A stretch of DNA of 54,767 nucleotides from an uncultured Desulfobacterales bacterium (GTDB lineage: Bacteria; Desulfobacterota; Desulfobacteria; Desulfobacterales; C00003060), in contig CAYSBQ010000001.1 in the NCBI GenBank assembly GCA_964429315.1, forward strand, positions 1 to 54,767. The letters run 5' to 3'. How positions within the stretch are numbered: the stretch's first letter is position 1; the number at the start of each line of letters is the position of its first letter. This document shows, one piece after another, positions 1 to 54,767 of the stretch. The position numbers and the translations under genes were made by a program. A model generated the notes under the pieces. That model had not been told where the DNA came from. It saw only the letters and a program-made list of their open reading frames with translations, and did no database searches.

Positions 1-1559
1 TTCTTCTTGGCAACCTTCTTCTTGGCAGGGTTCTTCTTGGGGTTTCCACGCAGGGCACGTCGTATCGCCGAGTGGTCGACTTCCGCCTCCCAGACGTCTT
101 CTTCCCTCGTAGACAACGGAGCGAATTCGTTTACAACATCAAACCCCTTCGACCCGGGCACGTATGCGTCCGCAGCGCTCTCAATCAACTCGGACTTGAG
201 CAGACTGTTCGCCGTCTCTTTTCCGAACTTCTTATGCGCCAGCCTCTTCGAATAAGGCGCGTGCCTGGCCACATTGAAAAGAAGACTCTTTTCCTTGGGC
301 CTCAGTGCCGGGTTCCGGCGGCGCTTGGCGACCTTCTTCTTGGTAGGGTTCTTCTTCGGAGCACCCTTGAGCTGCCGCTCATTCGATTTCTCAATCGCCT
401 TGAGAAGCTCGTCTGCATCCTTGCCGTGGAAGTGAAAGCCTACGCAGGGGTTCGCCTTGCGTCGAAGCTTGATGAGCGACTTGCGGACAGCGTTGACGTC
501 CGACGCCCACTGCCTCTGGTCGGCCTTGCTCCACTCGGACCTAGCGGCCGAAGGGATGCGTCCCTGGAACTCCTCGAGTTCGTGGAGGAACGACTCGACG
601 GTATCCTTATCCATCTTGTCGCCGGTGAGGCGAGTCTGAATCTTTCCCACCATGCTGGTGAGAGCGCGCTTCGATTCAGCGTACGTACGTAGAGCGCTTT
701 GCTGCTTCGTGCGATTATGAATGTCCTTCATGCGACGGATGATGCGCTGGATATCAGATTTGACGATCTCCTGCCCCCGCTTCGCTTTCACATCGAGCGC
801 AGAGAACTGGCGATCGACCCACGCCACATCTTCCGGGACGACGTTGTCCCGCGTCATCTTTTGCTCTTTATCATCGAATGTAATGAGCAGTCTTCTTCCG
901 TCGTTATCGAGAACCTTACCAACCCCGTGGTCCTTATGGTAGACCTCCGCGCCTCGAATGAAGAAGACCTGATGCTTGACGGCATGCTTCCGGATTTGGT
1001 TCCATCGTTTCTCCGCGCTTGCCAATAGGTTCGTCATCTCAGCCTTGGTTCGATCGGCTCGGCTCGAAGTCTTTTTCGGCTCTGGCGCGTAGATCGTTAT
1101 CTCTTTCTCGAGCGTGACGATTCCACCCATTGCACTGGCAATAGGCTTGCGCAGATCTATTCCCTTACGACGCGCAAGATTTTCGATCTTGAATACGTCT
1201 CGTTTGATTGCACGGATCTCATTGCGACGAAGCGCAGACATTGGCGAGGCCTCGAGCCGGTCGAGTCTGCTATTCATCCGCTTGACCATCGCATTCGTGT
1301 AACGGGCAATCAGGCCGTCGAGCAGCTTGACTCTTTTCTTGTCAGCCTGAAGCCTAGCGCGCGCTTCTGCGGGAAGCCTTCTGGGTGGATCTTCGTTGCT
1401 GAGACGCTGTTCGATTTGCTCGAGGGTCTGAATGTCATCGTTCAGAGTTTCGTGCTCCTCATACGCCAGGTCTACTGCCGCGGCCGATCCAGCAACAAGC
1501 TCGTCGACGTCTCCGGTGAGATCTTCAGCCTCGGGATTTGATTTTCTTCTTCTAGCCAT
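1..1559 (-). CDS. Hypothetical basic protein, C-terminus runs off the window edge (partial)
   Basis: Manual reverse-complement reading finds ATG at 1559-1557, directly after the stop (1561-1563) of the upstream gene. The frame then stays open to position 3. It is absent from the supplied track because no stop is reached. Lys/Arg-rich, ending ...RGNPKKNPAKKKVAKK, with an earlier APKKNPTKKKVAKRRRNP. The plus-strand ORFs listed here look like antisense shadows. Confidence 0.6.
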   Translation of the reverse strand, partial: MARRRKSNPEAEDLTGDVDELVAGSAAAVDLAYEEHETLNDDIQTLEQIEQRLSNEDPPRRLPAEARARLQADKKRVKLLDGLIARYTNAMVKRMNSRLDRLEASPMSALRRNEIRAIKRDVFKIENLARRKGIDLRKPIASAMGGIVTLEKEITIYAPEPKKTSSRADRTKAEMTNLLASAEKRWNQIRKHAVKHQVFFIRGAEVYHKDHGVGKVLDNDGRRLLITFDDKEQKMTRDNVVPEDVAWVDRQFSALDVKAKRGQEIVKSDIQRIIRRMKDIHNRTKQQSALRTYAESKRALTSMVGKIQTRLTGDKMDKDTVESFLHELEEFQGRIPSAARSEWSKADQRQWASDVNAVRKSLIKLRRKANPCVGFHFHGKDADELLKAIEKSNERQLKGAPKKNPTKKKVAKRRRNPALRPKEKSLLFNVARHAPYSKRLAHKKFGKETANSLLKSELIESAADAYVPGSKGFDVVNEFAPLSTREEDVWEAEVDHSAIRRALRGNPKKNPAKKKVAKK

Positions 1560-1560
1560 C

Positions 1561-2886
1561 TTAGCCTCGAGTCTTTTTCTTCAGTTCTTCGCGCACAACT
1601 TTGGCGCTCGCTTTTGCCTTATTCAGGCCGGTCTTATGACCAGAGTATTTGTACTCCCTCACCGCCATCTCGTAATACTTGTATGCGTCAAGCAAGCAGG
1701 CATCGGATAGCGTCGAGCTATACTTATCCATTGCGGCATCAGCCTTATTCAAAAGGTCGTCGCCAAGCTTGTGGTGAGTTTCTTTACCGGGATTCTCCTT
1801 AGTGCTAAAGGTGCCGCGCTTCGACAGGTGCTTGTAGCAAGTATTGAAAATCCCGATAATCGAATCTCGGACCCCGACTCGAATCTCACCTACCGCTTCT
1901 GCTTCCTTCTCTTTCCCTGCCAAGAAAAGATTCGCCCTGGCGTTCTCGAGGGAGTCGTACGCTCTCATGAGGGACCTGAAATCAGGACGGTCGGACTTGA
2001 GGGATTCCTCCCACTTGGCTTTGTACTTTTTGGATTGAGCCAGAGACTTTTTAGCCTGTGACTCAGCCGAAGCTTCTGAGTGCTTGAACGAGGAGAATAC
2101 CCCGGGATTCTTTCGTGGAATATACCCAAGGCTTCTATCTGGATTAGCCTTGCGCCCGGACACCTTCTCCTCGAGCAGTCTCTTCTTGCGCTCTTGAGCC
2201 TGCTTCTTCTTTCTCTGGATACGGGCGGCCTCTGATTCCTCTCGGGAGATATCCGCTCTATCGGAGGCGCTCCGGCGATAGACGCCGCGGCCTGCTGACT
2301 TCGAGCGACGGGTCTTTTCCCTTGGGGTAATGCCTCTTTCGTCGTACCAAATCATTGCCGCGTTCACGACGCGACGCGCGGCAATTTCGGCTTCGTCTTT
2401 ATTTCTGAAGGTTCGTTGGAGGGCCTGATTGTCGTAGATCTTCGGCGCCTTCTCATCTTCAATGACGCGCCTACCCTTGCGTGTGACTTTTACAATGCAG
2501 TCTCCGCTATCGAGTTCGCCGACTTCGAAGATGAATCCATCCACCTTGCCAGTTGTGCGTGAAATTATACCCTTGGGATCTTTCTTCACTTTTTTCCTCG
2601 TCGCTGCAGGTTTCTTCGATTCTGCTCGTTCGCGCTTATCGATGGCGCTGTGTATTCTCGCCGCTTTAGCTTCTGCGAGTTCGCGGGCTATTGCTCTCAT
2701 GTCACCGATCAACTCGGCGGCTAGGGCGTCTCGTGTTGGCCCTGGTGACAGGGATAGAATGGTCTGGGGCGGCCGGACTTCGAACAGTTGGCGGAGTTCG
2801 GCTTTACCCTCCTCGCCATGCTTCGAAATCTCATGGGCGAGAGCCTTGATTAGGTTCTTGACCTTGTCTGTATTTGGTCTGGACAT
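1561..2886 (-). CDS. Hypothetical Lys/Arg/Glu-rich protein (441 aa)
   Basis: Longest ORF locally, co-directional and abutting its neighbours. Charged low-complexity centre with recurring K-x-NP motifs (KENPGK, RKNPGV, RKANPD). No family recognised. Confidence 0.7.
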   Translation of the reverse strand: MSRPNTDKVKNLIKALAHEISKHGEEGKAELRQLFEVRPPQTILSLSPGPTRDALAAELIGDMRAIARELAEAKAARIHSAIDKRERAESKKPAATRKKVKKDPKGIISRTTGKVDGFIFEVGELDSGDCIVKVTRKGRRVIEDEKAPKIYDNQALQRTFRNKDEAEIAARRVVNAAMIWYDERGITPREKTRRSKSAGRGVYRRSASDRADISREESEAARIQRKKKQAQERKKRLLEEKVSGRKANPDRSLGYIPRKNPGVFSSFKHSEASAESQAKKSLAQSKKYKAKWEESLKSDRPDFRSLMRAYDSLENARANLFLAGKEKEAEAVGEIRVGVRDSIIGIFNTCYKHLSKRGTFSTKENPGKETHHKLGDDLLNKADAAMDKYSSTLSDACLLDAYKYYEMAVREYKYSGHKTGLNKAKASAKVVREELKKKTRG

Positions 2887-2912
2887 GGGCTCTCTATTCA
2901 GGTTACCTAGAT

Positions 2913-3122
2913 TCAGCCGGGAAGGTTATTGCGAATGTTTCGCAATCGGTCGCCGTCGGCTTCGGCCTTAGCGAGTAGTTCGTCAGGGATGAGTCCACCA
3001 TTGCGAACGTCCGCGGCCATTTGCTCGAGGCTCTTGGCCAGCGCTTCTCGCGTGACCTTTGCAACCTTGGCAATGCCAGTGATGATCGATGTGATGAGGG
3101 TGGTGATTTCTGCTGCGCCCAT
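2913..3122 (-). CDS. Small hypothetical protein (69 aa)
   Basis: Track ORF 2913..3173 trimmed to the internal ATG at 3122-3120 (MGAAEITTLITS...). The upstream gene ends at 3127, and a purine-rich GGGAAGATAAGAAA precedes this ATG. Confidence 0.5.
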   Translation of the reverse strand: MGAAEITTLITSIITGIAKVAKVTREALAKSLEQMAADVRNGGLIPDELLAKAEADGDRLRNIRNNLPG

Positions 3123-3126: not shown

Positions 3127-3576
3127 TTATCTTCCCGTAAGCTTCTTGAGTTTGGATACGAGCTTGTCCCCATCGGGTAGAAGCTCGAGCAAACTGATTG
3201 CTGATTCTAGCAGAGCGTTGGTCGCCGCCTTGCGCTCCTCTTCGCTGCCTTCGACGATCTGCATCACGGATGAATGAACCTTTGCGGCTTCGTAATACAC
3301 ATCGATGGCAAGCTCGATCTTCTCGTGGGTCGCATTCTCGTACTTCGGACCCATGCATTTATCGAGTTCGGACTTCGTGATGACGTCTGGACTTTCCGGA
3401 TTGCACGAATCTCCAGCGCAGCACTCATCAATCTTTTTATTGAATTGCTCGCTATAGATTCCGTAGGATTCAGTCGAGAATTGCTTCGTCACCGCGCCGG
3501 TGACATAGGAAGCTTTGTATCCGACCGCGCATCCTGCGGAAAGAACCAAAGAGAGCCCAAGGGCCGTTCGTCGCAT
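3127..3576 (-). CDS. Putative lipoprotein
   Basis: N-terminus MRRTALGLSLVLSAGC has a basic n-region, a hydrophobic core and a lipobox-type ...SAG-C. The mature part carries several Cys. Confidence 0.7.
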   Translation of the reverse strand: MRRTALGLSLVLSAGCAVGYKASYVTGAVTKQFSTESYGIYSEQFNKKIDECCAGDSCNPESPDVITKSELDKCMGPKYENATHEKIELAIDVYYEAAKVHSSVMQIVEGSEEERKAATNALLESAISLLELLPDGDKLVSKLKKLTGR

Positions 3577-3634: not shown

Positions 3635-4543
3635 ATGGATCCTCGTTTCCTCCTGGGGGCAGCCGCGCTCGGCATTGTCGCAGCAGCTGGTAGCTCCAAG
3701 TCCTCCAAGACTTCCAAGGGGGGAGGTTCGAGTTTTCAAAAGCGGAGCCCCCAATCTACTCTTTTGAATCCTTCCAACGCCATGAAGGCCATCGGGATAC
3801 CTCAGGATGATTGGCCTGAGATGGCATTCGAAATACCATTCGCTGCGGGGTCGGCAAGTCCGAAGTGGCCTATCATAACAAATAGCGACAAGAAGTTCGT
3901 CGTTTGCTATCGGACCGTTACTGGTAGATATGAGGGCAATGGATCTCGCCGATTCATGGTCGATCGTGACGGCGGAAGCAGATACCACGCGGGCGTAGAC
4001 TTATATGGCAATGCGGACGACCCCATTGTTGCCATGGAGTCTGGCACAATCTCAAATCACTATCACTTCTATCACGGGACCTACGCATTGTTCGTTCAAT
4101 GCGATTCAGGATTAGTGATTAACTACGGTGAAGTCAAAAAGGATTCTTGGAAAGAGTTCGGTCTTTCGAATGGATCTAAGGTCAAAAAAGGGCAGCCAAT
4201 TGCACGCGTCGGATTGATGAGTGGCGGAAGTCACATGTGTCACTTCGAAACGTACATGCCTCCGACGGAGCAGAACAAGAAGTACCACGGCGGAGACGCT
4301 GGACCTCTTCTGAATCCGACTTACTACCTCCTGCTCGCTCGAATCGTAGCCGGCGCTGGACGCGCTTACGCTGGGATTGACTGCATGGCTGCAGCGTCAA
4401 TGAATAGACCGATCCCCGAGTCTCTCATCCCCATTGCCGAAGAGGACGAGCGCGTAGGCGACCGTGGTGGCAATTCCATTCTCCCTGAGCTGCTCACCGA
4501 TGATGAGTGGCGACCCCAAAAAGACATGTCCGATGGACCCTGA
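3635..4543 (+). CDS. M23/LytM-family peptidoglycan metallopeptidase with N-terminal hydrophobic anchor
   Basis: Shows YHAGVDLYG (HxxxD) and GGSHMCHFE (HxH) with the expected beta-rich segment between them. The N-terminus MDPRFLLGAAALGIVAAAGSSKSSKTSK resembles the GG-helix plus basic module of the late genes. Confidence 0.8.
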   Translation: MDPRFLLGAAALGIVAAAGSSKSSKTSKGGGSSFQKRSPQSTLLNPSNAMKAIGIPQDDWPEMAFEIPFAAGSASPKWPIITNSDKKFVVCYRTVTGRYEGNGSRRFMVDRDGGSRYHAGVDLYGNADDPIVAMESGTISNHYHFYHGTYALFVQCDSGLVINYGEVKKDSWKEFGLSNGSKVKKGQPIARVGLMSGGSHMCHFETYMPPTEQNKKYHGGDAGPLLNPTYYLLLARIVAGAGRAYAGIDCMAAASMNRPIPESLIPIAEEDERVGDRGGNSILPELLTDDEWRPQKDMSDGP

Positions 4544-4558
4544 TAGAATCGAGCAACC

Positions 4559-5026
4559 ATGAAGAGCGCACTACCACTTCTCGTCGCCGGCGGCGCCGCA
4601 CTGCTACTGATGGGCGGTAAGAAGAAAAAATCCAGCGAGAAGCCCGTTGAAGATTCCGACGAAATGGATTCCGACGAAATGGATTCCGACGATGAGGAAA
4701 TCGATGAGGGAGACGGGCCGGACTCGAATGAGGATGAGGGATACGGAAAGGTCGCATCCGGAACTCGGACGGACCGACTCGGTGGGCATGGTTGGAGGAT
4801 CATGTACGATGCGGACGGCTACCACGCTCTACTCATGGTAAGCCCTGGGAATTTCTCTCCAGTGGATACGGAACTCGGAGTCGCCGCCTCACTCAAGGCT
4901 GCGAAAGGGCTCCTGAGAGATCACTACAATCAAGCAATTCTCGACGCGGGATTCACCCAATCCGACTTCCTCGAAGACCCTGTGGCCCCGAGAACCGTCA
5001 GCCGCGTTCGCGGCCTATCTCTTTAG
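4559..5026 (+). CDS. GG-helix/poly-Lys N-terminal module protein with an acidic repeat region
   Basis: N-terminus MKSALPLLVAGGAALLLMGGKKKKSS, followed by DSDEMDSDEMDSDDEE. Starts 16 nt after the M23 gene. Confidence 0.75.
   Translation: MKSALPLLVAGGAALLLMGGKKKKSSEKPVEDSDEMDSDEMDSDDEEIDEGDGPDSNEDEGYGKVASGTRTDRLGGHGWRIMYDADGYHALLMVSPGNFSPVDTELGVAASLKAAKGLLRDHYNQAILDAGFTQSDFLEDPVAPRTVSRVRGLSL
4652..4692 (+). repeat. In-frame 15-nt tandem repeat GATTCCGACGAAATG x2 plus a partial third copy
   Basis: Read directly: 4652-4666 and 4667-4681 are identical, and 4682-4692 repeats the first 11 nt. Encodes DSDEM DSDEM DSD. Confidence 0.9.
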
Positions 5027-5694: not shown

Positions 5695-6186
5695 TCAATC
5701 TCCTAGGTCGTACACGTAGCACTCTATATCCCAAAGGTTTTCCTCGATCAACTCGCCGACGACGTCCCAAGTTCCACCCGCGAGACCGCATCCTATGCGA
5801 GGCATATGAACCGTCACCTTGTCTTTGGGGTTCAGGAACTGAAGCGAGCGGACTGCGGCTGCCAATTTACCAAGGCAGCCCTCGAGGCTGTCGTATCGTA
5901 TAGGCCTATAGTTGACCAAGTCCCGGCTGATGCCATGCTGCGCAATCATGTTCATGATGGCCAAGTTTAGATCTACGAATACGCAGTAGACCTCCCCCAG
6001 TCCGAAGCTCTTCGAAAATTTCGCCTTCGCCATGTAGCTCTTCCTGGCTTCGGGCCATTCCCTAGAAACGACACCGGAGAACCCGGCGCCCCACTTGCCT
6101 GCGTCATTACAAACGTGAGCAATGAGGCGAATGCCTTCTTGGACGCATGGCTTGGTTGCATCACCTACGCGATAGTGGATTGGCAT
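5695..6186 (-). CDS. Macro domain protein (ADP-ribose binding/hydrolase fold)
   Basis: GDATKP...IAHVCNDAGKWGAGFSGVV...WPE near the N-terminus and HMPRIGCGLAGGTW near the C-terminus match the two glycine-rich ligand loops of macro domains. Size (163 aa) is typical. Confidence 0.7.
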   Translation of the reverse strand: MPIHYRVGDATKPCVQEGIRLIAHVCNDAGKWGAGFSGVVSREWPEARKSYMAKAKFSKSFGLGEVYCVFVDLNLAIMNMIAQHGISRDLVNYRPIRYDSLEGCLGKLAAAVRSLQFLNPKDKVTVHMPRIGCGLAGGTWDVVGELIEENLWDIECYVYDLGD

Positions 6187-6212: not shown

Positions 6213-6773
6213 CTAGAAAAGCTCTACCTGGAAAATCTTCTTTCGCAACTTAGCAACGTCTGATGGCCTGGCAAGATTGTACACAGGTATCCCTCTGCTG
6301 CGTGCGAGTTTGATGGCGTGACCTGTTCCACCGATCACCTTCCCTTCGGGCGTCCAGCAGACTACGAACTCAACGGGCGTTCTTAAGTCTTCTCCGAGAA
6401 CCTGATGCATATTTCGGGCAAGTATCATTCGCACGGCGACGTTCCGGTCTTCGAACCCGTCGATAACCCGTTGGGCTAGGGCGACCGCTGCGTCGGTTGC
6501 GCCTTGGAAGTATGTCGCTCCTGGCGACGCGTCCTTGGATATCGGGCGCTTGTTGAATCCGTCCCAAGGTAAGAATATTTCCTTTTTCGTCGCGCCCTCT
6601 TCGAAGTAGGTGTCCGCACCATCGGCTCCGCCTGACCTGAGTGTGTACCCCTGCCTGTTTAGCTCGAGGGCGATCTCCCGGATTCTATTTCGCTCTTCGG
6701 GTGGAGTTTTTCTCGACCCGATACCTGCGTAGTATTTAGGCTGGGACGAATTCATCGTATACGGTACCGTCAC
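6213..6773 (-). CDS. SLOG/DprA-like Rossmann-fold protein
   Basis: YYAGIGSRKTP...LRSGGADGADTYFEEGA...EIFLPWDGFN matches the GSR ... SGGA-G-D signature of the Smf/DprA-LOG (SLOG) superfamily as seen in phage-encoded members. Confidence 0.6.
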   Translation of the reverse strand: MTVPYTMNSSQPKYYAGIGSRKTPPEERNRIREIALELNRQGYTLRSGGADGADTYFEEGATKKEIFLPWDGFNKRPISKDASPGATYFQGATDAAVALAQRVIDGFEDRNVAVRMILARNMHQVLGEDLRTPVEFVVCWTPEGKVIGGTGHAIKLARSRGIPVYNLARPSDVAKLRKKIFQVELF

Positions 6774-46805: not shown

Positions 46806-46808
46806 AAT

Positions 46809-46994
46809 ATGGCGAAAAAGAAAAAAGAGGACGACGATGCGTTCAACAAAATTTTGTGGGTTGCCGGGGCCGCTGGCGTGACAGCGTTTGCCATGTTCTA
46901 CGTGAACAAGCATCTCAACGAAAAGGAAGAGCTTAATCGATTGCGGAGCAATGGGCACCAGCCTCAGCTTAGCGGTGGGGACGGCGAAGAATGA
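46809..46994 (+). CDS. Small membrane protein, basic cluster before the helix (61 aa)
   Basis: MAKKKKEDDDAFNKILWVAGAAGVTAFAMFYV. The order of the poly-Lys and the hydrophobic helix is inverted relative to its neighbours. Confidence 0.6.
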   Translation: MAKKKKEDDDAFNKILWVAGAAGVTAFAMFYVNKHLNEKEELNRLRSNGHQPQLSGGDGEE

Positions 46995-47503: not shown

Positions 47504-47505
47504 CG

Positions 47506-47949: not shown

Positions 47950-47967
47950 AATACACAAGGCAGAACC

Positions 47968-48546
47968 ATGGCAAACAAAGTACTACCACTACTCGTAGCC
48001 GGCGGAGCCGCGCTTCTTTTCCTTCCCAAAAAGAAGAAGACGGAGAGCACCTCTGGAAAAAAATCGAACGGAGAAGTCGGGGGCGATTCAAATGGAGATA
48101 TCTCCAAGACCGGAACGCTTTTCGGATGGAATTATCGAGTACGAAAGGCGAAGACCGTAGAAGGCTTCTCCGTTCAATACTTCGGTGAGGTTCAAGCACC
48201 AGATTCCAAGACTTGGGTGAAGGCTCATCAAGACGCTCGAACCGATCCAGAAGCCGCCCGATTCCTCGCTATGGAAGCGATCGCCACCCGCGTCGCAGCC
48301 GCCGACACGCCAGAGGACAATCTTGTGTTCAACTCCGGTTCGATGTCCGACTGGAACTGGAGAGTTATGCGAACCGTACCAATGGAAGGGTTCGGTGTCG
48401 CATACTTCGGAGAGATGCAGGCTCCCGATTCGCAACAATGGACTCGAGTCCATAATGACGCCCGGGTTGATCCCGAAGCCGCTCGCCTGCTCGCCCTAGA
48501 GGCGATCGCAATGAAGCTCGAAGAACTGGCTAACGCCGGCAACTAG
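47968..48546 (+). CDS. GG-helix/poly-Lys module protein with an internally duplicated ~65-aa domain
   Basis: MANKVLPLLVAGGAALLFLPKKKKT. The repeats are WNYRVRKAKTVEGFSVQYFGEVQAPDSKTWVKAHQDARTDPEAARFLAMEAIA and WNWRVMRTVPMEGFGVAYFGEMQAPDSQQWTRVHNDARVDPEAARLLALEAIA. Confidence 0.75.
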   Translation: MANKVLPLLVAGGAALLFLPKKKKTESTSGKKSNGEVGGDSNGDISKTGTLFGWNYRVRKAKTVEGFSVQYFGEVQAPDSKTWVKAHQDARTDPEAARFLAMEAIATRVAAADTPEDNLVFNSGSMSDWNWRVMRTVPMEGFGVAYFGEMQAPDSQQWTRVHNDARVDPEAARLLALEAIAMKLEELANAGN

Positions 48547-48562
48547 CCGGCCAGCCCACTTG

Positions 48563-49714
48563 ATGGGAGTACCGGTGGCCAGCGAAAACCTCCAGACGAT
48601 CATCGTCTCAAAAGAGATTGCGAGAACGCGCCTAGCTGCAGAAAAGCTGGCGCGTCCTTACGCGCGCGGTCCTCTTTATCCGACCGAAAAAAAGTCGAGC
48701 TGGCGCTTTCTGCAAAAGCCGCCGAGCGACTTTGTCCGCAATTCTTTTCGGGCCGTACCCATTCCTACCCAGGAGGGGATCGTCCTCGTCTATGGCAAGC
48801 TCAAGAGGCAGAGCAACCCCTCGGACCAGCGCTGGCTCCAATTCAGAGATGGAGACAGACGCGAGACGGTGATGGCCGAGTGGGACTTCTGGATGACCTG
48901 GAGGCCGAATGTAGCCAAGGCTAAGGATGCGGATGGGCTCCGAAAGCTCATCGCCTCTGCCGACAAGAGGGAGGTTCGAAGCGTGTTGGTGCGAGGTTTA
49001 ATCGATCAGGACATTGCTGAAAGAGCAAGGGTTTTGAAGATTACCAGGATGCCGAAATCTGTTGAGGCGGACGAGAGGATAGTAGATCTCCTGAGGCGCG
49101 GCAGAATGGGTAATCCAGGTCAGCCCCCGAAGGTCAACAAAGGCAGCTCACCGAAATCGGCTAAGAAAAAAGCCAGAACGAGGACTACTAAGCACATCGT
49201 TCTTCGCTCTCCTAAAACCATGCCAGATCCAGGGCCATGCTCATGGCTTGGGTCGATGGTCGAATGGGCATGGGTGATGCCAAGAGGGGAAACGGCTAAG
49301 AAAATCGACGAGGATGGCAATGCGCTTTGGACACCTAACTCCGAATGGATGTTCATGTGGGCCCCTAAGTACAAGGCAGTTGTATCGATCAGAAAGCCTC
49401 GGAACATGTACAGGCTTGCCAAGGTTTCTAGGCATGGTGGCGCGGCAAAAATGTTCGAAACATTCATGGCTCGCCCGGCTGAAAATTCATTCGAGATTAG
49501 CGTCCCTGACATTCCTATCCATCACGTTGGCCAAAAGGCTGCAGCGATTGTGTATAGGTCTGATAAGTGGTCGCCGAAGAGGCTCGAATCTGACTACATT
49601 CACAAGTTCGGGAAGGGCGTGCAACTTTACTGCGGTCCAAGCATTGAGCATCCCGACGTTTTCATTTGCTTCGGTGGCAAGCTTACGCTGACAAAGCGCG
49701 GGCTCGTCTGGTAG
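48563..49714 (+). CDS. Hypothetical soluble basic protein (383 aa)
   Basis: The track start 48560 is a TTG, so the adjacent ATG 48563 is used. No hydrophobic module. Basic patch NPGQPPKVNKGSSPKSAKKKARTRTTKH. No family recognised. Confidence 0.65.
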   Translation: MGVPVASENLQTIIVSKEIARTRLAAEKLARPYARGPLYPTEKKSSWRFLQKPPSDFVRNSFRAVPIPTQEGIVLVYGKLKRQSNPSDQRWLQFRDGDRRETVMAEWDFWMTWRPNVAKAKDADGLRKLIASADKREVRSVLVRGLIDQDIAERARVLKITRMPKSVEADERIVDLLRRGRMGNPGQPPKVNKGSSPKSAKKKARTRTTKHIVLRSPKTMPDPGPCSWLGSMVEWAWVMPRGETAKKIDEDGNALWTPNSEWMFMWAPKYKAVVSIRKPRNMYRLAKVSRHGGAAKMFETFMARPAENSFEISVPDIPIHHVGQKAAAIVYRSDKWSPKRLESDYIHKFGKGVQLYCGPSIEHPDVFICFGGKLTLTKRGLVW

Positions 49715-49729
49715 AATCAGGATATCGTT

Positions 49730-50404
49730 ATGGCCAGAAAGAAACACTGCAGGAATCGTCTAGTCGTCCATGCAGAGAACCGTTTGTATTCGCCTCGTTA
49801 CGACTGGGAGGGCGCCGATGGATTGGCGCAAACCAGTTTTGAATTCATCGACGCTGACGCAATGTGTTTTTGGGGTGTATGTGACAGCGATAGCTACAAC
49901 GCGTGGGTGAAGGCGACCGAGAAGTACATCAACGGCGAGCTTGTCCCTCATTACAAGAAGGTGCTTGCACGGGCGAATGCTCAGGCTGCTGGTGCTCCGC
50001 TGAAGACTGAGCTTCAGGATAAATTCAATAAGATCAAAGCGTTTATCCAGAAGTGGGATGACGCCGGATACGAGCCGAACAAGGATTGGACGGATACTCT
50101 TTCTCATCCCTTTGCCACGTATTGGTGGGGTGAAATTCGAAGCATCATCGAGTACTTCGACGAAGCTGCCTGTTACTTCGACACTCTCGACGTGATCGCC
50201 GCAGACGACCTGCTGTCACCAGCCCTTGCAAAGGGTGCTCCCAAGCGCACGCTCGAGCCGTCGCCGACCGGCAGTTATTTGGATGGGTCGGGCGGCCCAA
50301 GCGGCGGCGGTGGCGGTGGCAGCTCGAGCTTTGCGACCAAGGCGGTTGGCATTATGGCCATTGGTGCTGCCGGATATTTCGGATTCAAGGTTCTTACGGA
50401 GTAA
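49730..50404 (+). CDS. Tail-anchored protein (224 aa)
   Basis: Soluble N-terminal domain, a Gly-rich linker (GGPSGGGGGGSSS), then the C-terminal helix AVGIMAIGAAGYFGFKVL. Confidence 0.65.
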   Translation: MARKKHCRNRLVVHAENRLYSPRYDWEGADGLAQTSFEFIDADAMCFWGVCDSDSYNAWVKATEKYINGELVPHYKKVLARANAQAAGAPLKTELQDKFNKIKAFIQKWDDAGYEPNKDWTDTLSHPFATYWWGEIRSIIEYFDEAACYFDTLDVIAADDLLSPALAKGAPKRTLEPSPTGSYLDGSGGPSGGGGGGSSSFATKAVGIMAIGAAGYFGFKVLTE

Positions 50405-50407
50405 AGA

Positions 50408-51157
50408 ATGCCTAAAAAATCATCTGCACTCCCACTCGTAGCTGGCGGCGCTGCCCTGCTCATGATTTCTTCTGGGAAGAAGAAAAAGAAGAAGGCATCT
50501 GGCCATCGTTCTCGTTGGGGAGTTTTGGTCAGCAAGGATTGCAACTCGGTAGAGGTTGTCGACTCTGTCATGTTCCAGAGGTTTACCTACGGGGCATACG
50601 ACGAGCTTGTGTCGATCGATCCAAGTCTCTCCTTGATTCAAATCACCGATGCTCTTTTCGGTGAGGTGGCCCCCGAGTGTTCCGGATTCCCCGAGGAGCC
50701 AGAGAGCGCGGAGGTCGCTGAGCTTTACGCCGTGATTGCACGTGGTGTGGCTTCTTATCTTGCGACCGATCCACGAACGAAGGATTCCATGGGGAGCCTC
50801 GTAGACGAGGCTACGCAGATCTCCTTCATCGACTGGTATCGCGGATGGAGAAACTATCCATCCGCTGACCTTCCGAACGGGCCGTCAGGACAAGTTGTTT
50901 TCTCAAGCGATATGTCCAACTATAAAATCGGCGACAGCTGGTTCGAGGATATCGTTCGTCCATTCGTTCAGCATGAACAAAATGAGGGCCGTCTCGAGTT
51001 CGCATTTGAAGACTTTGTGAACGAGCTGGGCGTGAAGGTCGGGCAATTTGCGATGCCTATCAAAGAGCTTCCGCAGGACGCTCCGACCGTTCAGGATTTC
51101 ATGAACAAGCTAGAGCAGGCCATCGATATGGCCACAGCCGAAGTATTCAAGGGATGA
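50408..51157 (+). CDS. GG-helix/poly-Lys module protein (249 aa)
   Basis: MPKKSSALPLVAGGAALLMISSGKKKKKKASG. ACGGAG SD. Confidence 0.75.
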   Translation: MPKKSSALPLVAGGAALLMISSGKKKKKKASGHRSRWGVLVSKDCNSVEVVDSVMFQRFTYGAYDELVSIDPSLSLIQITDALFGEVAPECSGFPEEPESAEVAELYAVIARGVASYLATDPRTKDSMGSLVDEATQISFIDWYRGWRNYPSADLPNGPSGQVVFSSDMSNYKIGDSWFEDIVRPFVQHEQNEGRLEFAFEDFVNELGVKVGQFAMPIKELPQDAPTVQDFMNKLEQAIDMATAEVFKG

Positions 51158-51579
51158 ACAAGGACGACATCGTACCGTTCGCCCTTTTGGGCGCAGGCCT
51201 ATTCCTTTTGGGAAAGGCTGCCAAAAAAGGTCCAAGAAAACTCAAGGACCGAACGGGGGAGGCGTGTGATCCAAAAGATAACGCTCCATATGGGTACGAG
51301 TGCGGACAAGTCGTCGGCGGATGGGAGCTGATGGAGGAGAAAGGTAAATTCCTCGGGTTCGGTCCATATAACAATCGAGACGGTGTCGATACGGCTCTCT
51401 CGAGACTTGGATTTTCCGGCGGGAACCTAAAGGGGTTCCAGATGTATATGTCTTTGATCTCCGAGTGGGATTTACGTAAAGATGGCCAGCTCGACAGCGA
51501 AACGATCGTGGCTCTAGAAGAAGCCGAAGGCCTACTGAACAGGGACGAGTGGGTTCCGCCAAGGGGTAATCAGCCATGA
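51154..51579 (+). CDS. GG-helix/basic module protein with a PG_binding-like segment (141 aa)
   Basis: MNKDDIVPFALLGAGLFLLGKAAKKGPRK, then ALSRLGFSGGNLKGFQMYMSLISEWDLRKDGQLDSETIVALEEA. ATGA overlap. Confidence 0.7.
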   Translation: MNKDDIVPFALLGAGLFLLGKAAKKGPRKLKDRTGEACDPKDNAPYGYECGQVVGGWELMEEKGKFLGFGPYNNRDGVDTALSRLGFSGGNLKGFQMYMSLISEWDLRKDGQLDSETIVALEEAEGLLNRDEWVPPRGNQP

Positions 51580-52100
51580 GCGAAGATGAATCCAACGCGC
51601 CAAACTCTTCAGAAGGAATGCTCCTCGAGCCCGAGAAGAAGACCCTTGGCTCATGGCTGCTCCCCGCTGCTCTCGCTGCAGGTGGCGCAGCTCTGGTCTA
51701 CAGGGCTGCGAAGAAGGGCGACAAGAAATCGAAGCCTTCGGCCTCTGCCCCCGCCGCTAGCGCTAGCGAGGTCGCGTTCTCTGCGAACCACAGTAGCTAC
51801 TCAATGGGAAAAGATTACGAGCAGCTTGTGCTCGAGCCGTATCTCGCAGAGCAGGCTGAAGATGGGAACCTGCATTTAAAGGGGCAGGGCTCTGGATTCG
51901 TCGGGTCCATTCCTATGGTCGAGAATCTAATGCTCGACCATACGCGCAAGACGGTCATTTCCGCATTCAAATCTACTCACAAGGTGAAGGTGGGCAAGGA
52001 GTTTGTACAGATCTCCGCCCTCCCTCAAGGCAAGACAGGCGTTCAGAAGTTCAACGACTGGATTGAAGAGAAAACAAAAAGTTTCCAGGAGAACTACTGA
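51576..52100 (+). CDS. GG-helix/basic module protein with a longer N-terminal extension (174 aa)
   Basis: ...KKTLGSWLLPAALAAGGAALVYRAAKKGDKKSK. ATGA overlap. Confidence 0.7.
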   Translation: MSEDESNAPNSSEGMLLEPEKKTLGSWLLPAALAAGGAALVYRAAKKGDKKSKPSASAPAASASEVAFSANHSSYSMGKDYEQLVLEPYLAEQAEDGNLHLKGQGSGFVGSIPMVENLMLDHTRKTVISAFKSTHKVKVGKEFVQISALPQGKTGVQKFNDWIEEKTKSFQENY

Positions 52101-52996
52101 TGGCATTCAATCTACTACCACTCCTCCTCATCGGCGGCGCAGCTGCCTACGTCGTCACTTCCGACAAGAAAAAGAAAGAGGAGGAGAAAGAGTGCCCGCC
52201 TACGACGACTGTATCCCTTGGCGAGCTTAGCTCCGTGAGCACTCGGGCTACGGAGAAGTTCGGTCATAATGAAGACCCTTCCAAGGAGGCTTCATTTCTC
52301 GTGAACGAGCTTTTGCCGAATGGCTGCTCGCGTGCGAGCAAGGATTCGACTTTCAAGATCAGCATTCCCGAGGCGGATAAATCATGGGAGCTTTCGATAC
52401 CTGACGCGTACATGCTCTTGTTCGCAAGCGGCATCAGCGTACGGGTACATGCGTCCAAGCTGACCGAGCCTCAGGCCAAGAAGCTATGGACCCGAGAGCT
52501 TGATTGGTACAAGAAGCTTACCGGTAAGAACTTCGACCCATCGGAGTCCGCCATGGAACTCGCCAAGCTGGTAGGCGAGGCTCTATTCGGCAAGGTGGGC
52601 GGTGGAAATACTTCGGAGGATCTAATCCCCGAGGATTCCTGTCCGGGAACTCTCATATACGATATTGACGAAGCTGAACTTATCAAGCTCACGGAGGCCG
52701 AGGCTCGAGGCAGGCAGCTAAGCCCGAACGACCCATTCAAGATCGCTGACGTCGTATTCGCAGCGGTTGCTCCGCCCACCTGCACGAAAAAGGATTTTGG
52801 TACGATCGTGACGATGAGCATATCGATCGGAGGCGGGCCCCAGGTGTCCAGGTCGACAGACTTGGCGGCCCTCTACGCGATGTTCGTCATTGACGCCGCC
52901 AAGTCCATCAACCTTGGGCCCGCTCAAATGGCTGCCGTGGAGAGCAAGGTGGCCTCAAACTACAAGAAGCTCACCGGAAAAGATCTCACGCTGTAG
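52100..52996 (+). CDS. GG-helix/poly-Lys module protein (298 aa)
   Basis: MAFNLLPLLLIGGAAAYVVTSDKKKKEEEKE. 1-nt TGATG overlap. Confidence 0.75.
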   Translation: MAFNLLPLLLIGGAAAYVVTSDKKKKEEEKECPPTTTVSLGELSSVSTRATEKFGHNEDPSKEASFLVNELLPNGCSRASKDSTFKISIPEADKSWELSIPDAYMLLFASGISVRVHASKLTEPQAKKLWTRELDWYKKLTGKNFDPSESAMELAKLVGEALFGKVGGGNTSEDLIPEDSCPGTLIYDIDEAELIKLTEAEARGRQLSPNDPFKIADVVFAAVAPPTCTKKDFGTIVTMSISIGGGPQVSRSTDLAALYAMFVIDAAKSINLGPAQMAAVESKVASNYKKLTGKDLTL

Positions 52997-53005
52997 GAGT
53001 CCAAA

Positions 53006-53473
53006 ATGGCAAAAAGCGCAGCACCACTACTACTTCTCGGCGGAGCCGCCTTGTTGCTTGTGAGCAGCAAGAAGAAAAAGAAATCGTCGAACAACGTATG
53101 CACGATCGCTCGTTCATACGAAGAGTTCAAAGCGATTCTCGACAGTAACGAGCGCGTCGAATACCCTGTTTCGTTTATCTTTTACCCGGATGGCGAAGAG
53201 GCTCGAGGTGAGCAACTTTGCAAGACCCTCGCTCCGCAAGGAATCCGCACGCTTGTTGTCAGCGCCGCGAACGAGGCCAAGTGGGCCTATGAGATGTTGG
53301 ATTCTGGAATGCTCCAACCAGGCAGTGCGCTGCCTGGGGTAGATGAGATGAAGAAAAAGGCTGAGGGTGTATGGATCGTTTACAGCGCCAGCGACACTCA
53401 AACCGGGATACCCTGGGACTCGATACCGTGGGATAACACAAAATCGATTCTCAGCATTCTGAAGGGGCTATAA
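53006..53473 (+). CDS. GG-helix/poly-Lys module protein (155 aa)
   Basis: MAKSAAPLLLLGGAALLLVSSKKKKKSS. TAGGAG SD. Confidence 0.75.
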   Translation: MAKSAAPLLLLGGAALLLVSSKKKKKSSNNVCTIARSYEEFKAILDSNERVEYPVSFIFYPDGEEARGEQLCKTLAPQGIRTLVVSAANEAKWAYEMLDSGMLQPGSALPGVDEMKKKAEGVWIVYSASDTQTGIPWDSIPWDNTKSILSILKGL

Positions 53474-53479
53474 TCCGTC

Positions 53480-54013
53480 ATGGCAAAAAGCGCAGCACCA
53501 CTACTAATTCTCGGCGGAGCCGCCTTGTTGCTTATGAGCAGCAAGAAGAAAAAGAGCAGCGGCAGCGGAACTCTTCCAGAATTTCCATATGGGACATTCG
53601 ATCCGAGCGCAGACGATCCCGTTTACGGCGGTGAAACTCCGGCACCGTCTAGCGGTGGGGCAGAAGCCGATACTGCGAAATGGACGGCCATCCAAAAAGG
53701 ATTGAAGATCCTCGGATACACCGAGGTTGGCCAGCCCACCGGAAAGCCCAATGCGGCGACCTATACAGCCATCAAGTTGTTCCAGAAGGATTGGAACACA
53801 ATGATCGGGTACATGACCAGCATCGACTCGCCAGCTGTCGGAAAAACGGTGTACACCACGACTGTCGAAGATGGCGCATGGGGCCCTGCGACCAAGTATC
53901 GATATGATAAGGCTATGAATGCGTTTGGGAACCCACCGTTTGAGGTGGAGGGCCTGCTCATGTCACTCAACAGCTTTCGCGATATGGCCGCAGAACTCAA
54001 AAAGAAATTCTAA
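53480..54013 (+). CDS. GG-helix/poly-Lys module protein with a PG_binding-like domain (177 aa)
   Basis: MAKSAAPLLILGGAALLLMSSKKKKSS, then IQKGLKILGYTEVGQPTGKPNAATYTAIKLFQKDWN...EDGAWGPATKYRYDKAMN. Confidence 0.75.
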   Translation: MAKSAAPLLILGGAALLLMSSKKKKSSGSGTLPEFPYGTFDPSADDPVYGGETPAPSSGGAEADTAKWTAIQKGLKILGYTEVGQPTGKPNAATYTAIKLFQKDWNTMIGYMTSIDSPAVGKTVYTTTVEDGAWGPATKYRYDKAMNAFGNPPFEVEGLLMSLNSFRDMAAELKKKF

Positions 54014-54016
54014 GTC

Positions 54017-54682
54017 ATGTTATTACCACTTCCACTCATTCTCTTTGGCGGCGGTGCCGTTCTCCTTCTAAGCGGAAAGAAGAGTAGATCTACTAGACCT
54101 ACCGTACCAAGCGGCGCAGGTGGAGGCGGAAGCTCAAGCTCAAGTGATGGCTCTGACAAGACTCCAGACGGCTACGGGTCAGAAGATGAATCCATCATTG
54201 GCGGCTCAAGCGACGACTCAAAAGCTCCTTTACGAGCTGACGGCGAGCCATGGCCATCGACGACCGGAGTCCATGACTCGTCATATCCAGAGCCCATGTG
54301 GTCACCAGTGCATGGTGAGTTGCCACAAGATTCAGGATTGTGGTGGTGGAAGCAGACGAAGCTTTACGTCCTTGGCTACAACCGTGGATTAGAGGACGGC
54401 GGTATCGACGGCATCCCTGGGGGTACGACCACCAAGGCAATAGCCTCATTCCAGTCTGAATGGAATTTTTTCGTGGATTATCTTAACAAGATCAACCCTT
54501 CTATTGTATACAAAGATCCGTACACGAAGATTTCCTCTGATGGTTACTGGGGTCACAATACGGACTTGCGAGTCAATAAGGCTCTCAGTAAGTTCAATGG
54601 AACCGATCCAATCTATGTCGAGGAGATAGGGAAAAGCGTCCCTACATTCCACGATATGATTGTCGAAATACAGAAGCTCTAA
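54017..54682 (+). CDS. GG-helix/basic module protein with a PG_binding-like domain (221 aa)
   Basis: MLLPLPLILFGGGAVLLLSGKKSRS, then LYVLGYNRGLEDGGIDGIPGGTTTKAIASFQSEWN...SSDGYWGHNTDLRVNKAL. Confidence 0.75.
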   Translation: MLLPLPLILFGGGAVLLLSGKKSRSTRPTVPSGAGGGGSSSSSDGSDKTPDGYGSEDESIIGGSSDDSKAPLRADGEPWPSTTGVHDSSYPEPMWSPVHGELPQDSGLWWWKQTKLYVLGYNRGLEDGGIDGIPGGTTTKAIASFQSEWNFFVDYLNKINPSIVYKDPYTKISSDGYWGHNTDLRVNKALSKFNGTDPIYVEEIGKSVPTFHDMIVEIQKL

Positions 54683-54712
54683 CCATCAGAGCCTAATCAA
54701 ACGGAACAACAG

Positions 54713-54767
54713 ATGGCATCTCCACTCCCACTTTTGATCGTTGGCGGCGCACTTCTTCTCATCAGCG
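54713..54767 (+). CDS. Start of a further GG-helix module protein (partial, runs off the window)
   Basis: The ATG at 54713 begins MASPLPLLIVGGALLLIS, which reaches the window edge. Confidence 0.6.
   Translation, partial: MASPLPLLIVGGALLLIS

Follow-up and report, generated by a model that had tools for sequence, protein, structure and literature searches.

The question raised by this locus is what kind of genetic element it belongs to. The window, that is, the whole 54,767-nucleotide stretch of DNA that was analysed, is probably a fragment from the genome of a hitherto undescribed bacterial dsDNA virus, tailless and icosahedral, which falls, at the fold level, within the double-jelly-roll (DJR) lineage; the particle itself has not been observed. 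Since genes are truncated at both ends and a terminal repeat is absent, the 55 kb are regarded as a fragment. About 80 open reading frames (ORFs) are present, rather than the roughly 90 given in an earlier note on this DNA.

The same note recognized none of the hallmarks of tailed phages, and this was upheld by profile searches in which 20 large ORFs were run singly against Pfam, 20 singly against PHROGs, and 62 further ORFs against both libraries through an alignment wrapper, together with follow-up scans. Across the ~80 ORFs, the Pfam and PHROG searches identified no large terminase, portal, HK97 capsid, prohead protease, tape measure, baseplate or tail protein. The sole terminase matches were weak: Terminase_5 (E 0.0027), confined to residues 9-42 of a triple-HTH protein (12987-13418), and a small-terminase PHROG (E 0.0057; ORF not mapped).

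The capsid-like paralogues that had been proposed for the late region were found as three tandem genes (34257-37707) whose products share pairwise identities of 38-41%.

34257-35387, + strand: capsid paralogue 1 (376 aa), assigned to the double-jelly-roll type through its homology with paralogue 2 (40% identity)
35384-36463, + strand: capsid paralogue 2 (359 aa), double jelly roll predicted by the AF2 model
36460-37707, + strand: capsid paralogue 3 (415 aa), 41% identity to paralogue 2

Paralogues 2 and 3 have a common MTRKR amino terminus (DNA repeat D8), and paralogue 1 had no match in Pfam or PHROG searches. The family comprises 106 related clusters in which each paralogue forms a separate orthologue group (18 of the 106 matches for paralogue 1 and 42 of the 106 for paralogue 3), and all three were found in every relative read. 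An AlphaFold2 model of paralogue 2, calculated from 64 sequences (pLDDT 80.1), presented two eight-stranded beta sandwiches. When the model was searched against the PDB with Foldseek, the top nine matches were PRD1 P3, PR772 P3 and the STIV capsid protein, followed by PBCV-1, D13, phiCjT23 and Faustovirus, with E-values of 1e-5 to 1e-3 and a probability of ~0.99 for PRD1 and PR772 that decreased further down. The superposition was poor (TM only ~0.2, rmsd around 15 Å); therefore, the assignment of the DJR fold rests on the ranking of the matches and their E-values. Matches in BFVD include a virophage capsid and the GC1 tectivirus major capsid protein. Two observations count against the DJR reading: the BFVD matches are a mixture of jelly-roll proteins that also includes RNA-virus capsids and some tail proteins, and profile searches against PDB sequences found nothing. 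With the low TM-scores in mind, the models suggest that the virus most likely belongs, at the fold level, to the PRD1-adenovirus (DJR) lineage. Three anciently diverged DJR proteins would then be inferred to build pseudo-hexameric capsomers, either as heterotrimers or as homotrimers specific to position.

Immediately preceding the capsid genes is a second jelly-roll candidate.

33518-34156, + strand: single-jelly-roll protein (212 aa), candidate penton protein of the vertices from the AF2 model and conservation

No other protein of the lineage is as conserved: its identity in relatives is 84-91%, versus ~57-60% for the capsid paralogues. Its family comprises 86 representative clusters, some with two or three tandem copies of the domain. 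Residues 75-212 were modeled by AF2 as a beta sandwich with pLDDT above 90. The best PDB folds were single-jelly-roll capsid proteins, although these matches were weak (E at least 6e-3, thus above 1e-3; probability up to 0.99). The predicted structure makes the protein a candidate for one resembling small capsid or penton proteins, which the late operon would supply to the vertices.

Tail and decoration proteins can also contain jelly-roll domains, a point illustrated by some of the BFVD matches, and the window might be part of a jumbo tailed phage whose terminase, portal, HK97 and tail genes lie outside it and whose jelly-roll paralogues serve as decoration, receptor-binding or accessory proteins. 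The window is truncated at both ends, and its syntenic relatives reside on 117-221 kb contigs, each read over only ~21 kb. These contigs are mostly unread; therefore, hallmark genes beyond the region seen are not excluded, and host genes could be located there too. One relative also encodes, downstream, a small protein of 124 aa, part of which weakly matches a tail-fibre PHROG (E 7.7e-5). Such a phage is nevertheless quite unlikely, as no tailed-phage hallmark occurs on a composite map of at least 65 kb (the window and flanks taken from relatives), whose late operon, with more than 45 genes, looks complete, the jelly-roll genes at the head of that operon are tandemly triplicated and show the highest conservation, and IMG/VR, though rich in tailed phages, contains no relative.

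The remaining proteins in and around the late block, taken up here under the preferred reading of a tailless DJR virus, include several that are very basic.

31322-32695, - strand: acidic/basic coiled-coil-like conserved protein (457 aa), facing the late block
32879-33328, + strand: Gly/Ala-rich conserved protein (149 aa) with hydrophobic stretches, opening the late block
37709-38176, + strand: conserved 155-aa protein with an invariant Cys...His...Asp-Pro motif, 68-69% identity in three relatives
38155-40050, + strand: Cys/Pro-rich late protein (631 aa; 599-620 aa in relatives) with repeated R[RK]YG motifs
40050-43532, + strand: six late proteins, five basic by pI and one ferritin/Dps-like (PF00210)
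1-2886, - strand: two very basic proteins (pI ~10) with recurring (K/R)xNP motifs, the first truncated by the window end

Counterparts of the 457-aa protein (441-460 aa) occupy the same position in three related loci (L001, L003 and L004), and its sole, weak match was with a functionally unassigned PHROG. The 149-aa protein, for which a PHROG search found no match, is by eye ~85% identical to its counterpart in L001 (7477-7920) and somewhat less so to that in L004 (7550-7993); these identities were not computed. In the 155-aa protein, residues C85, H116 and D132 are invariant in three relatives. It may possibly be a cysteine protease, purely by inference, as no match was found in Pfam, NCBIfam or PDB sequences. 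The Cys/Pro-rich protein likewise matched no family in Pfam, PHROG or NCBIfam.

The suggestion of basic core-like proteins agrees with the calculated pI values at 40050-43532, 48560-49714 and 1-2886. The ORFs of the first region have a pI of 9.1-11.6 except for the ferritin-like protein at 41486-41980 (pI 7.0; PF00210, E 1.4e-7), and the ORF at 48560-49714 has a pI of 10.3. An MTRR[YN]GRHG amino terminus recurs among the 40050-43532 proteins (repeat D5), whose counterparts in L001 are fused into one protein of 654 aa. In L009, the counterparts of the 1-2886 proteins are followed by proteins of 116 aa and 766 aa, the latter of the same basic kind. The 40050-43532 proteins are candidates for core proteins that condense DNA. 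From these features, it is inferred that condensation would involve the MTRRxGRHG set, the ferritin/Dps-like protein, H1-like Lys-rich proteins and the (K/R)xNP proteins.

The right end of the window is dominated by membrane proteins, and domains directed at peptidoglycan occur both there and in the left arm.

43536-54767, + strand: array of ~18 genes, mostly for single-pass membrane proteins with an N-terminal anchor (PLLxxGGAALLL + poly-Lys)
3635-4543, + strand: membrane-anchored M23 peptidase (PF01551, E 6.4e-10; anchor at residues 5-21)
4559-5026, + strand: further anchor protein (anchor at residues 3-20)
45384-46103, + strand: SLT-like anchored protein, weakly supported by orthologues only
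47506-47949, + strand: anchored chagasin-type inhibitor (Inhibitor_I42, E 3e-13)
53480-54013 and 54017-54682, + strand: anchored PG_binding_1 proteins (E 1.4e-5 and 3e-4)
10339-11541, - strand: Amidase_2 + PG_binding_1 protein, candidate endolysin (PF01510, E 2.6e-6; PF01471, E 3.1e-6)

The earlier count of more than 20 small membrane proteins was about right: the window holds 19-21, with more in relatives past its right end. Sixteen have an N-terminal anchor followed by a Lys/Arg cluster, including the last ORF (54713-54767) that is truncated by the window end, three have an internal or C-terminal segment, and two are small early proteins; in relatives, at least ten further anchor proteins are located just downstream. 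The anchor is also repeated at the DNA level (repeat D2; 97% between 53006 and 53480). Of the membrane-anchored wall-degrading enzymes that had been proposed, the M23 peptidase is well supported, and its arrangement with the adjacent anchor protein (3635-5026) is repeated in L009-L011. The SLT-like enzyme has weak support only; the protein itself has no match, and PF01464 was detected in two of its four orthologues with a best E of 0.005. Lipoproteins with a lipobox are present, and L009 encodes a GH25 lysozyme in the same arm as the amidase of the window.

An internal membrane is inferred only. In the proposed arrangement, some 20-30 single-pass proteins would be targeted to a virus membrane under the capsid by their one common N-terminal anchor. 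By analogy to PRD1 P7, the anchored peptidoglycan-binding, M23 and SLT-like domains would open the cell wall at genome delivery, and the soluble amidase is inferred to bring about cell lysis. The anchored proteins may instead act in the host membrane, in lysis, superinfection exclusion, envelope remodelling or at an assembly site, and the virus may have a jelly-roll capsid without an internal membrane. At 13-21 uncharged residues, the hydrophobic segments are short, and the Lys/Arg residues after them predict an N-out/C-in orientation in the host membrane, which is no proof of incorporation into a particle. This alternative is considered unlikely in view of the organization of the anchored genes, which are co-oriented in one block with the capsid and core genes and syntenic across relatives, and because the number of anchored proteins (more than 25, window and flanks) and their domains directed at peptidoglycan correspond to the membrane proteomes of PRD1 and PM2.

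The left arm and center of the window carry the early genes, which also include a DprA-like protein and a macro-domain protein identified by family matches.

15009-15710, - strand: Tad6-domain protein, an inhibitor of the Thoeris anti-phage system (PF25188, E 5.8e-34)
19338-21116, - strand: RecT/Bet-like recombinase with a long C-terminal extension (PF03837, E 1.2e-6; TIGR01913, E 1e-7)
21073-23367, - strand: 764-aa protein with one classic AAA+ domain, CdvC/Vps4- and Cdc48-like (PF00004, E 6.1e-18)
23985-25622, + strand: SF2 helicase (ResIII, E 2.6e-27; Helicase_C, 8.2e-14)
25666-28608, + strand: PrimPol-D5 primase-helicase (Prim-Pol, 1e-13; DUF5906, 7.1e-12; D5_N, 6.3e-6)
28797-29122, no strand: inverted sets of tandem 9-mers, non-coding, after the primase-helicase gene; candidate replication origin

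The AAA+ protein is closest to p97/Cdc48 among PDB sequences (~1e-29 to 1e-30) and matches NCBIfam CdvC under the cutoff (E 2e-28). In 752 phage records, primase/helicase genes partially match the helicase and primase-helicase genes (23985-28608) at 29-35% identity. In the candidate origin, (TGGCCTAGG)x3 spans 28984-29010 and is 96% complementary to the set at 29095-29121; analogous but different iterons hold the same position in L001, L003 and L004. The identities of the early genes come from family matches and their roles are inferred from sequence. PrimPol-D5 would act by an iteron-type origin and, together with the SF2 helicase and the RecT-like, AAA+, DprA-like, macro-domain and Tad6 proteins, would replicate and protect the genome.

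As noted earlier from the letters alone, no FtsK/HerA-type packaging ATPase is visible: none was found in the window, where the AAA+ protein has the sole canonical Walker A motif, or in ~170 kb of related DNA (19 loci, several overlapping). The packaging motor is unidentified and would be encoded outside the DNA seen, or be of a type other than the usual FtsK/HerA ATPase. The missing ATPase is one reason to consider a non-viral megaplasmid or integrative element, in which the anchored proteins and hydrolases form an envelope-spanning apparatus or remodel the envelope and the jelly rolls are exapted. Wall hydrolases and numerous small membrane proteins are typical of conjugation systems too, DJR homologues are known from cells (PMC8812541), and one relative contig of 221 kb has a name ending in '_c' that may mean circular. 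This explanation is quite unlikely. VirB4, VirD4, relaxase, partition and plasmid-replication families were absent from all scans, the best folds are virus capsid proteins rather than cellular DJR enzymes, and the abundant basic core-like proteins, candidate endolysin and anti-defence gene fit a lytic virus. No relatives were found in 72,556 plasmids and 185,579 GTDB species genomes, which was counted as evidence against a common chromosomal feature, or in the phage collection, IMG/VR and the literature searched. A bacterial virus is the best reading because phage-type replication, recombination and anti-defence genes are accompanied by peptidoglycan enzymes. Its host may possibly be a member of the Planctomycetota, the only name among the relatives being Planctomycetota MAG, which is a metagenome-bin label alone; the host was not observed.

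Among known viruses, the Tectiviridae (PRD1, PR772, GC1) provide the best structural matches of the capsid paralogue. In both, a small jelly-roll protein adjoins the capsid genes, many small membrane proteins occur with membrane-associated wall hydrolases, and the hosts are bacterial. In PRD1, these hydrolases are P7 and P15. In contrast, tectiviruses have linear genomes of ~15 kb, a family B polymerase that is protein-primed, a single capsid gene and the P9 FtsK/HerA-type ATPase, whereas the window is a 55-kb fragment alone with PrimPol-D5, an SF2 helicase and three capsid paralogues; no PolB, FtsK/HerA-type ATPase or sequence similarity was found. The Helvetiavirae (Thermus phage P23-77, SH1) and Salisaeta phage SSIP-1 are likewise tailless viruses of prokaryotes that contain a membrane, and the genomes of some are larger (SH1 ~31 kb, SSIP-1 ~44 kb). 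The phage collection yielded no sequence relative. The earlier proposal of a PRD1/PM2/P23-77-type virus, drawn only from missing hallmarks and the make-up of the proteins, is supported on the PRD1-like side by the DJR and single-jelly-roll models and by gene content. The P23-77 type is the wrong subgroup and was rejected, as it has two separate single-jelly-roll capsid proteins and each paralogue of the window has two jelly rolls in one chain.

The Corticoviridae, Autolykiviridae and other DJR phages of the PM2 group, the main group found in metagenomes (PMC5894146), are also tailless bacterial viruses with an internal membrane. They differ in having genomes of 7-18 kb (PMC5894146), one capsid gene and a recognizable packaging ATPase, and none of their families was detected in the window with Pfam or PHROGs. 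The outsized genome that had been suggested is confirmed, as a 55-kb fragment already exceeds the ~7-18 kb of described prokaryotic DJR viruses (PMC5894146) and the < 50 kb of Preplasmiviricota (PMC11071308). The genome is most likely several times larger than that of any described bacterial virus with a capsid of the PRD1/adenovirus type. The verdict is a new lineage of double-jelly-roll virus, of which the full genome size is unknown.

The Nucleocytoviricota and their small relatives (e.g. mriyaviruses, PMC11253617) also pair a DJR capsid with a D5-like primase-helicase. They resemble this lineage further in having basic core proteins, an internal membrane with numerous membrane proteins and, in some cases, multiple capsid paralogues, and the fold matches of the window capsid include PBCV-1, Faustovirus and D13. 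They differ in having eukaryotic hosts, an A32 ATPase, PolB, VLTF3 and transcription genes of their own, none of which was found in the window. The window, in contrast, encodes peptidoglycan enzymes, lipobox lipoproteins, RecT, DprA and an anti-Thoeris gene, and thus a bacterial host is indicated.

The three capsid-like paralogues that lie in tandem on the plus strand (34257-35387, 35384-36463 and 36460-37707) are 359-415 aa in length and share a pairwise identity of 38-41%. A search of 5.8 billion proteins returned 106 related clusters, among which the only annotation was "hypothetical protein, Planctomycetota bacterium (MAG)". Of these clusters, 46, 42 and 18 make up the three orthologue groups, from which it follows that the triplication is older than the sampled diversity. 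All three paralogues occur in every relative read, including one in the related locus L001 that was overlooked by the gene caller. The middle paralogue was modelled with AlphaFold2 from 64 sequences (mean pLDDT 80.1); in the model, an amino terminal helix and arm precede two sets of about eight strands each (residues 77-210 and 233-357). When the model was searched against the PDB with Foldseek, places 1-9 were taken by PRD1 P3, PR772 P3 and the STIV capsid protein, followed by capsid proteins of PBCV-1, vaccinia (D13), phiCjT23 and Faustovirus (E 1e-5 to 1e-3; Foldseek probability of about 0.99 for PRD1 and PR772, lower further down). A BFVD search returned further jelly-roll capsids, among them capsid proteins of virophage and of tectivirus GC1.

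The TM-scores of these matches are about 0.2; superposition is poor and the hit list gives only the fold class. One possible cause is a wrong orientation of the halves relative to each other in the model. A profile of the capsid family matched no PDB sequence, leaving no sequence-level link to any solved structure, and hhalign detected no similarity between this family and the single-jelly-roll family described below. The predicted fold makes it probable, but does not prove, that the capsid paralogues are double jelly roll (DJR) proteins, and since the TM-score is so low, the Bamfordvirae feature of two vertical jelly rolls per major capsid protein chain is considered met with moderate confidence. 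If the assignment is true, three anciently diverged capsid paralogues would offer a natural case for studying capsomer diversification. Directly after the capsid genes, a conserved 155-aa protein (37709-38176, plus strand) has an invariant Cys, His and Asp-Pro. This pattern may be the triad of a transglutaminase-like or papain-like maturation protease; searches of PDB sequences, NCBIfam and Pfam lent the guess no support.

Adjoining the capsid paralogues directly upstream is a gene (33518-34156, plus strand) for a 212-aa protein with 84-91% identity in relatives, against only about 57-60% for their capsid paralogues. An exhaustive search identified 86 representative clusters, some proteins having the domain two or three times in tandem. 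With the alignment from this search, residues 75-212 were modelled as one beta sandwich (pLDDT >90) for which the best PDB folds, all weak (E >= 6e-3), were small jelly-roll capsid proteins of a nanovirus, of bromoviruses and, in one chain, of Sulfolobus polyhedral virus 1 (SPV1). The protein fits a penton by position and fold; its role at the vertex is inferred, from position only. An unannotated, virus-like 25-kb contig (L013, Logan SRR20820740) encodes a protein with three tandem single-jelly-roll domains (10001-11083) and a DprA-like gene 63% identical to that of the window (6213-6773). No relatives of the DJR paralogues were found in the 18.6 kb of this contig that were read. The single-jelly-roll family thus reaches other unknown viruses.

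The early genes point to a virus whose bacterial host has peptidoglycan; neither a eukaryotic virus nor a housekeeping locus fits. The signals that indicate a bacterial host are the peptidoglycan enzymes, the Tad6 domain and the lipobox lipoproteins.

Early genes and bacterial-host signals of the window (coordinates, strand, product)
23985-25622, plus, SF2 helicase (ResIII, E 2.6e-27)
25666-28608, plus, PrimPol-D5 primase-helicase
19338-21116, minus, RecT/Bet-like recombinase
21073-23367, minus, AAA+ domain nearest CdvC/Vps4 and Cdc48 (D2 domain)
6213-6773, minus, DprA-like protein (Pfam DNA_processg_A, E 2.9e-5)
5695-6186, minus, macro domain, weak match
15009-15710, minus, Tad6 anti-Thoeris domain (E 5.8e-34)
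10339-11541, minus, Amidase_2 and PG_binding_1 domains
3127-3576, 17703-18365 and 11459-12022, all minus, two lipobox lipoproteins and an H1-like protein

The primase-helicase partially matches primases in 752 phage records, at 29-35% identity. None of the scans returned a DNA polymerase family, and the replication genes are the PrimPol-D5 protein and the SF2 helicase. A match to phrog_768 (E 7e-54) obtained in a pooled scan probably belongs to the same DprA-like ORF. Tad6 is an inhibitor of type I Thoeris and stands as a strong match inside an otherwise unannotated lineage, which implies that the host carries Thoeris defence. The two lipoproteins have the classic lipoboxes LSAGC and ASGC, with an HExxH motif in the second, and the H1-like protein of the early arm is rich in Lys and Ala.

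The earlier note had recognized neither tailed-phage hallmarks nor an FtsK/HerA-type packaging ATPase, and both absences were borne out, the former at the sensitivity of profile HMMs. Twenty large ORFs were run singly against Pfam and 20 singly against PHROGs, with 62 more run against both through an alignment wrapper. Across these approximately 80 window ORFs there was no large terminase, portal, HK97 capsid, prohead protease, tape-measure, baseplate, tail-fibre or FtsK/HerA family. Twenty late-block proteins gave no Pfam match and just two PHROG matches, both weak. A weak Terminase_5 match (E 0.0027) falls on the helix-turn-helix part of a triple-HTH protein (12987-13418). In the DNA searched, the Caudoviricetes feature of an HK97-fold capsid, portal, large terminase and tail module is not met. 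A jumbo tailed phage with its hallmarks encoded elsewhere is considered improbable; the search relied on profiles alone and reached only part of the genome, and the flanking genes of the relatives hold no tailed-phage gene save a weak, partial tail-fibre PHROG match (E 7.7e-5) in one protein of about 120 aa. This match could equally denote a vertex spike domain. Paralogous proteins of this size lie past the late array of anchored proteins in relatives (L016 1647-2021 and 2121-2483; L008 12965-13327) and may be receptor-binding spikes.

For an FtsK/HerA-superfamily (A32/P9-like) ATPase, NCBIfam likewise gave no match in the window, and the sole canonical Walker A motif found there is in the classic AAA+ protein at 21073-23367. 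A Walker A scan of every ORF of all related loci (about 170 kb) identified no packaging ATPase, and only the AAA+ protein qualifies. The AAA+ domain of this 764-aa protein follows an N-terminal part of about 450 aa without known identity; the protein might conceivably act in remodelling of membranes or in packaging. The gene for a packaging ATPase may sit in unread parts of the genome. If the virus belongs to the DJR lineage, either a very divergent packaging ATPase is hidden or the DNA is packaged another way.

The window (54,767 bp, about 53% G+C) contains 79 genes in a greedy ORF set and about 80 after refinement against the relatives, arranged in four blocks.

Gene blocks of the window (coordinates, strand)
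1-23849, mostly minus
23985-30909, plus
30972-32695, minus
32879-54767, plus, a single long block

A tRNA search found none and an Rfam search gave no match. The genes are truncated at both ends and no terminal repeats were found, so the window is a fragment of a larger genome. The order of helicase, primase-helicase, single-jelly-roll protein, three paralogues, Cys/Pro-rich protein, basic proteins and anchor array is conserved on contigs of 221,287 bp (ERZ26692762 ctg83676), 193,387 bp (ERZ23486764 CAOS20-1 scaffold_67) and 117,077 bp (GCA_004196255.1 SDBU01000088.1) from separate projects; another related contig, which carries P0023, has 168,626 bp. About 21 kb of each of the first three was read, and reading of the 117-221 kb contigs was confined to within 10 kb of the capsid genes. 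An outward walk by means of end-gene homologues found few of them, on short contigs. To the right, relatives extend the map by about 10 kb with at least 10 more anchor proteins, an H1-like Lys-rich protein, the two proteins of about 120 aa and then proteins of 295, 643 and 116 aa. To the left, about 3 kb encode a 116-aa protein and a very basic 766-aa protein. Neither extension revealed an ATPase or tail module. From this composite map a genome larger than about 65 kb is inferred, and it may be as large as 100-220 kb, provided that the long contigs prove to be viral from end to end.

Described prokaryotic DJR viruses have genomes of 7-18 kb (PMC5894146), and those of the Preplasmiviricota are below 50 kb (PMC11071308). 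The small-genome feature of Preplasmiviricota/Tectiliviricetes is therefore not met by the window alone, truncated as it is at both ends. The Tectiviridae criterion of a terminal protein and a family B DNA polymerase primed by it was not fulfilled in the window scans. The Helvetiavirae (P23-77/SH1) have two separate single-jelly-roll major capsid proteins, whereas the modelled paralogue has two beta-sandwich halves, the other two align with it at about 40%, and the window has just one single-jelly-roll gene. The Nucleocytoviricota set (PolB, A32 ATPase, VLTF3, D5, DJR capsid and a eukaryotic host) is not met either, only a D5-like primase-helicase and a DJR-like capsid being shared. The element falls short of every described family on several features, namely genome size, polymerase or replication type and, above all, the FtsK/HerA ATPase that was not found.

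The best reading, in which we place reasonable confidence, is a tailless bacterial DJR virus from a new lineage, a known kind of virus in strongly divergent form, similar to PRD1 or PM2 in its working but on a larger scale. The suggestion of an outsized relative or new lineage of tailless virus gains support from the DJR-type fold and the genome of at least 55 kb. Of the proposed PRD1/PM2/P23-77 type, the PRD1-like fold agrees with the Foldseek result and the P23-77 type does not, given two halves in one chain. Within the DJR capsid lineage, large genomes have to our knowledge been seen only in viruses of eukaryotes. A bacterial DJR genome of at least 55 kb, perhaps much larger, would if true mean that genome growth in the lineage is not limited to eukaryotic hosts.

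The late region was described at the outset as holding capsid-like paralogues, basic core-like proteins and many membrane proteins, which is accurate. Sixteen window proteins, including an ORF truncated at 54713, start with an uncharged segment of 13-21 residues followed immediately by a Lys/Arg cluster. The typical segment is xxPLLxxGGAALLLxxG, as in the peptide MAKSAAPLLLLGGAALLLVSSKKKKK, and the anchor is repeated at the DNA level with 97% identity over 76 nt (53006 versus 53480). With the positive charge placed after the hydrophobic core, the anchors are not classical signal peptides. Further membrane segments are internal or C-terminal in three proteins and N-terminal in two small early proteins. 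The anchors carry an M23 peptidase (3635-4543), PG_binding_1 (two proteins) and a chagasin-type peptidase inhibitor. As for the anchored wall-degrading enzymes that had been claimed, the M23 enzyme is anchored and has its Pfam match; the SLT-like one (PF01464), checked against PDB sequences, NCBIfam and Pfam, has only weak support through orthologues (2/4, best E 0.005). The inhibitor, of the chagasin (I42) family of cysteine-peptidase inhibitors, is fused to its anchor at 47506-47949 (plus strand) and kept in relatives; virion or membrane proteins do not usually carry such a cargo.

Between the capsid genes and the anchor array are five basic proteins (pI 9.1-11.6), with one ferritin/Dps-like protein (pI 7.0) among them. 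MTRRxGRHG-type N-termini and R[RK]YG motifs recur in the basic late proteins. The MTRR[YN]GRHG N-terminus also recurs as a DNA repeat, R[RK][YF]G is internal (40050-43532, 38155-40050), and two more very basic proteins at the left end have (K/R)xNP motifs; all three may be protease-processing or binding motifs. L001 (16173-18137) encodes as a single 654-aa chain what the window has as separate basic proteins.

In the favoured reading of a tailless DJR virus, the virion would be built of three capsid proteins and a vertex protein, the basic proteins would condense the DNA, and a membrane populated through the common anchor would bear the wall-opening enzymes. This anchor has the look of a signal that directs proteins to the virion membrane. 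A lipid membrane under the capsid is inferred from indirect evidence only, namely the 16 window proteins with the common anchor and the additional ones in the flanking DNA of relatives. The alternative of a jelly-roll virus in which the anchored proteins work in the host membrane alone is regarded as not very likely. A more far-reaching proposal, tentative and rather doubtful at present, is that the lineage comprises jumbo DJR viruses infecting Planctomycetota, with genomes of about 100-220 kb that may be circular, three-protein capsomers, an anchor-targeted virion membrane and no canonical FtsK/HerA packaging ATPase. Packaging might then be performed by the Cdc48/Vps4-like AAA+ protein instead. 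Very few viruses are known to us for Planctomycetota, and such viruses, if real, would be the bacterial equivalent of eukaryotic giant viruses.

Megablast of both window halves against 50,697 phage records gave no match, and exact matches to window proteins were located only on fragments below 3 kb (runs SRR8943089, SRR8943090 and SRR8943092). Profiles of both jelly-roll families found no relatives in IMG/VR or in 185,579 GTDB species genomes. By tblastn, neither the capsid paralogue nor the single-jelly-roll protein matched phage records, and the capsid paralogue matched no plasmid. No description of the lineage was found in the literature searched. A non-viral element has a slim chance of being the correct reading. 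This rival, the tailed phage and the virus with anchors confined to the host membrane all remain open because the long contigs are mostly unread and no particle has been seen. With the lineage apparently absent from IMG/VR and phage collections, current virus-detection pipelines miss it, a gap that affects estimates of tailless virus diversity.

Directly after the PrimPol-D5 gene, in the non-coding stretch 28608-29380, tandem 9-mers form inverted sets (28797-29122), consisting of (TGGCCTAGG)x3 and its complement with 84 nt between. Analogous iterons of different sequence occupy the same place in three related loci (L001 3073-3427, L003 1993-2347 and L004 3797-4139), a pattern suggestive of a replication origin and an initiator that evolve together.
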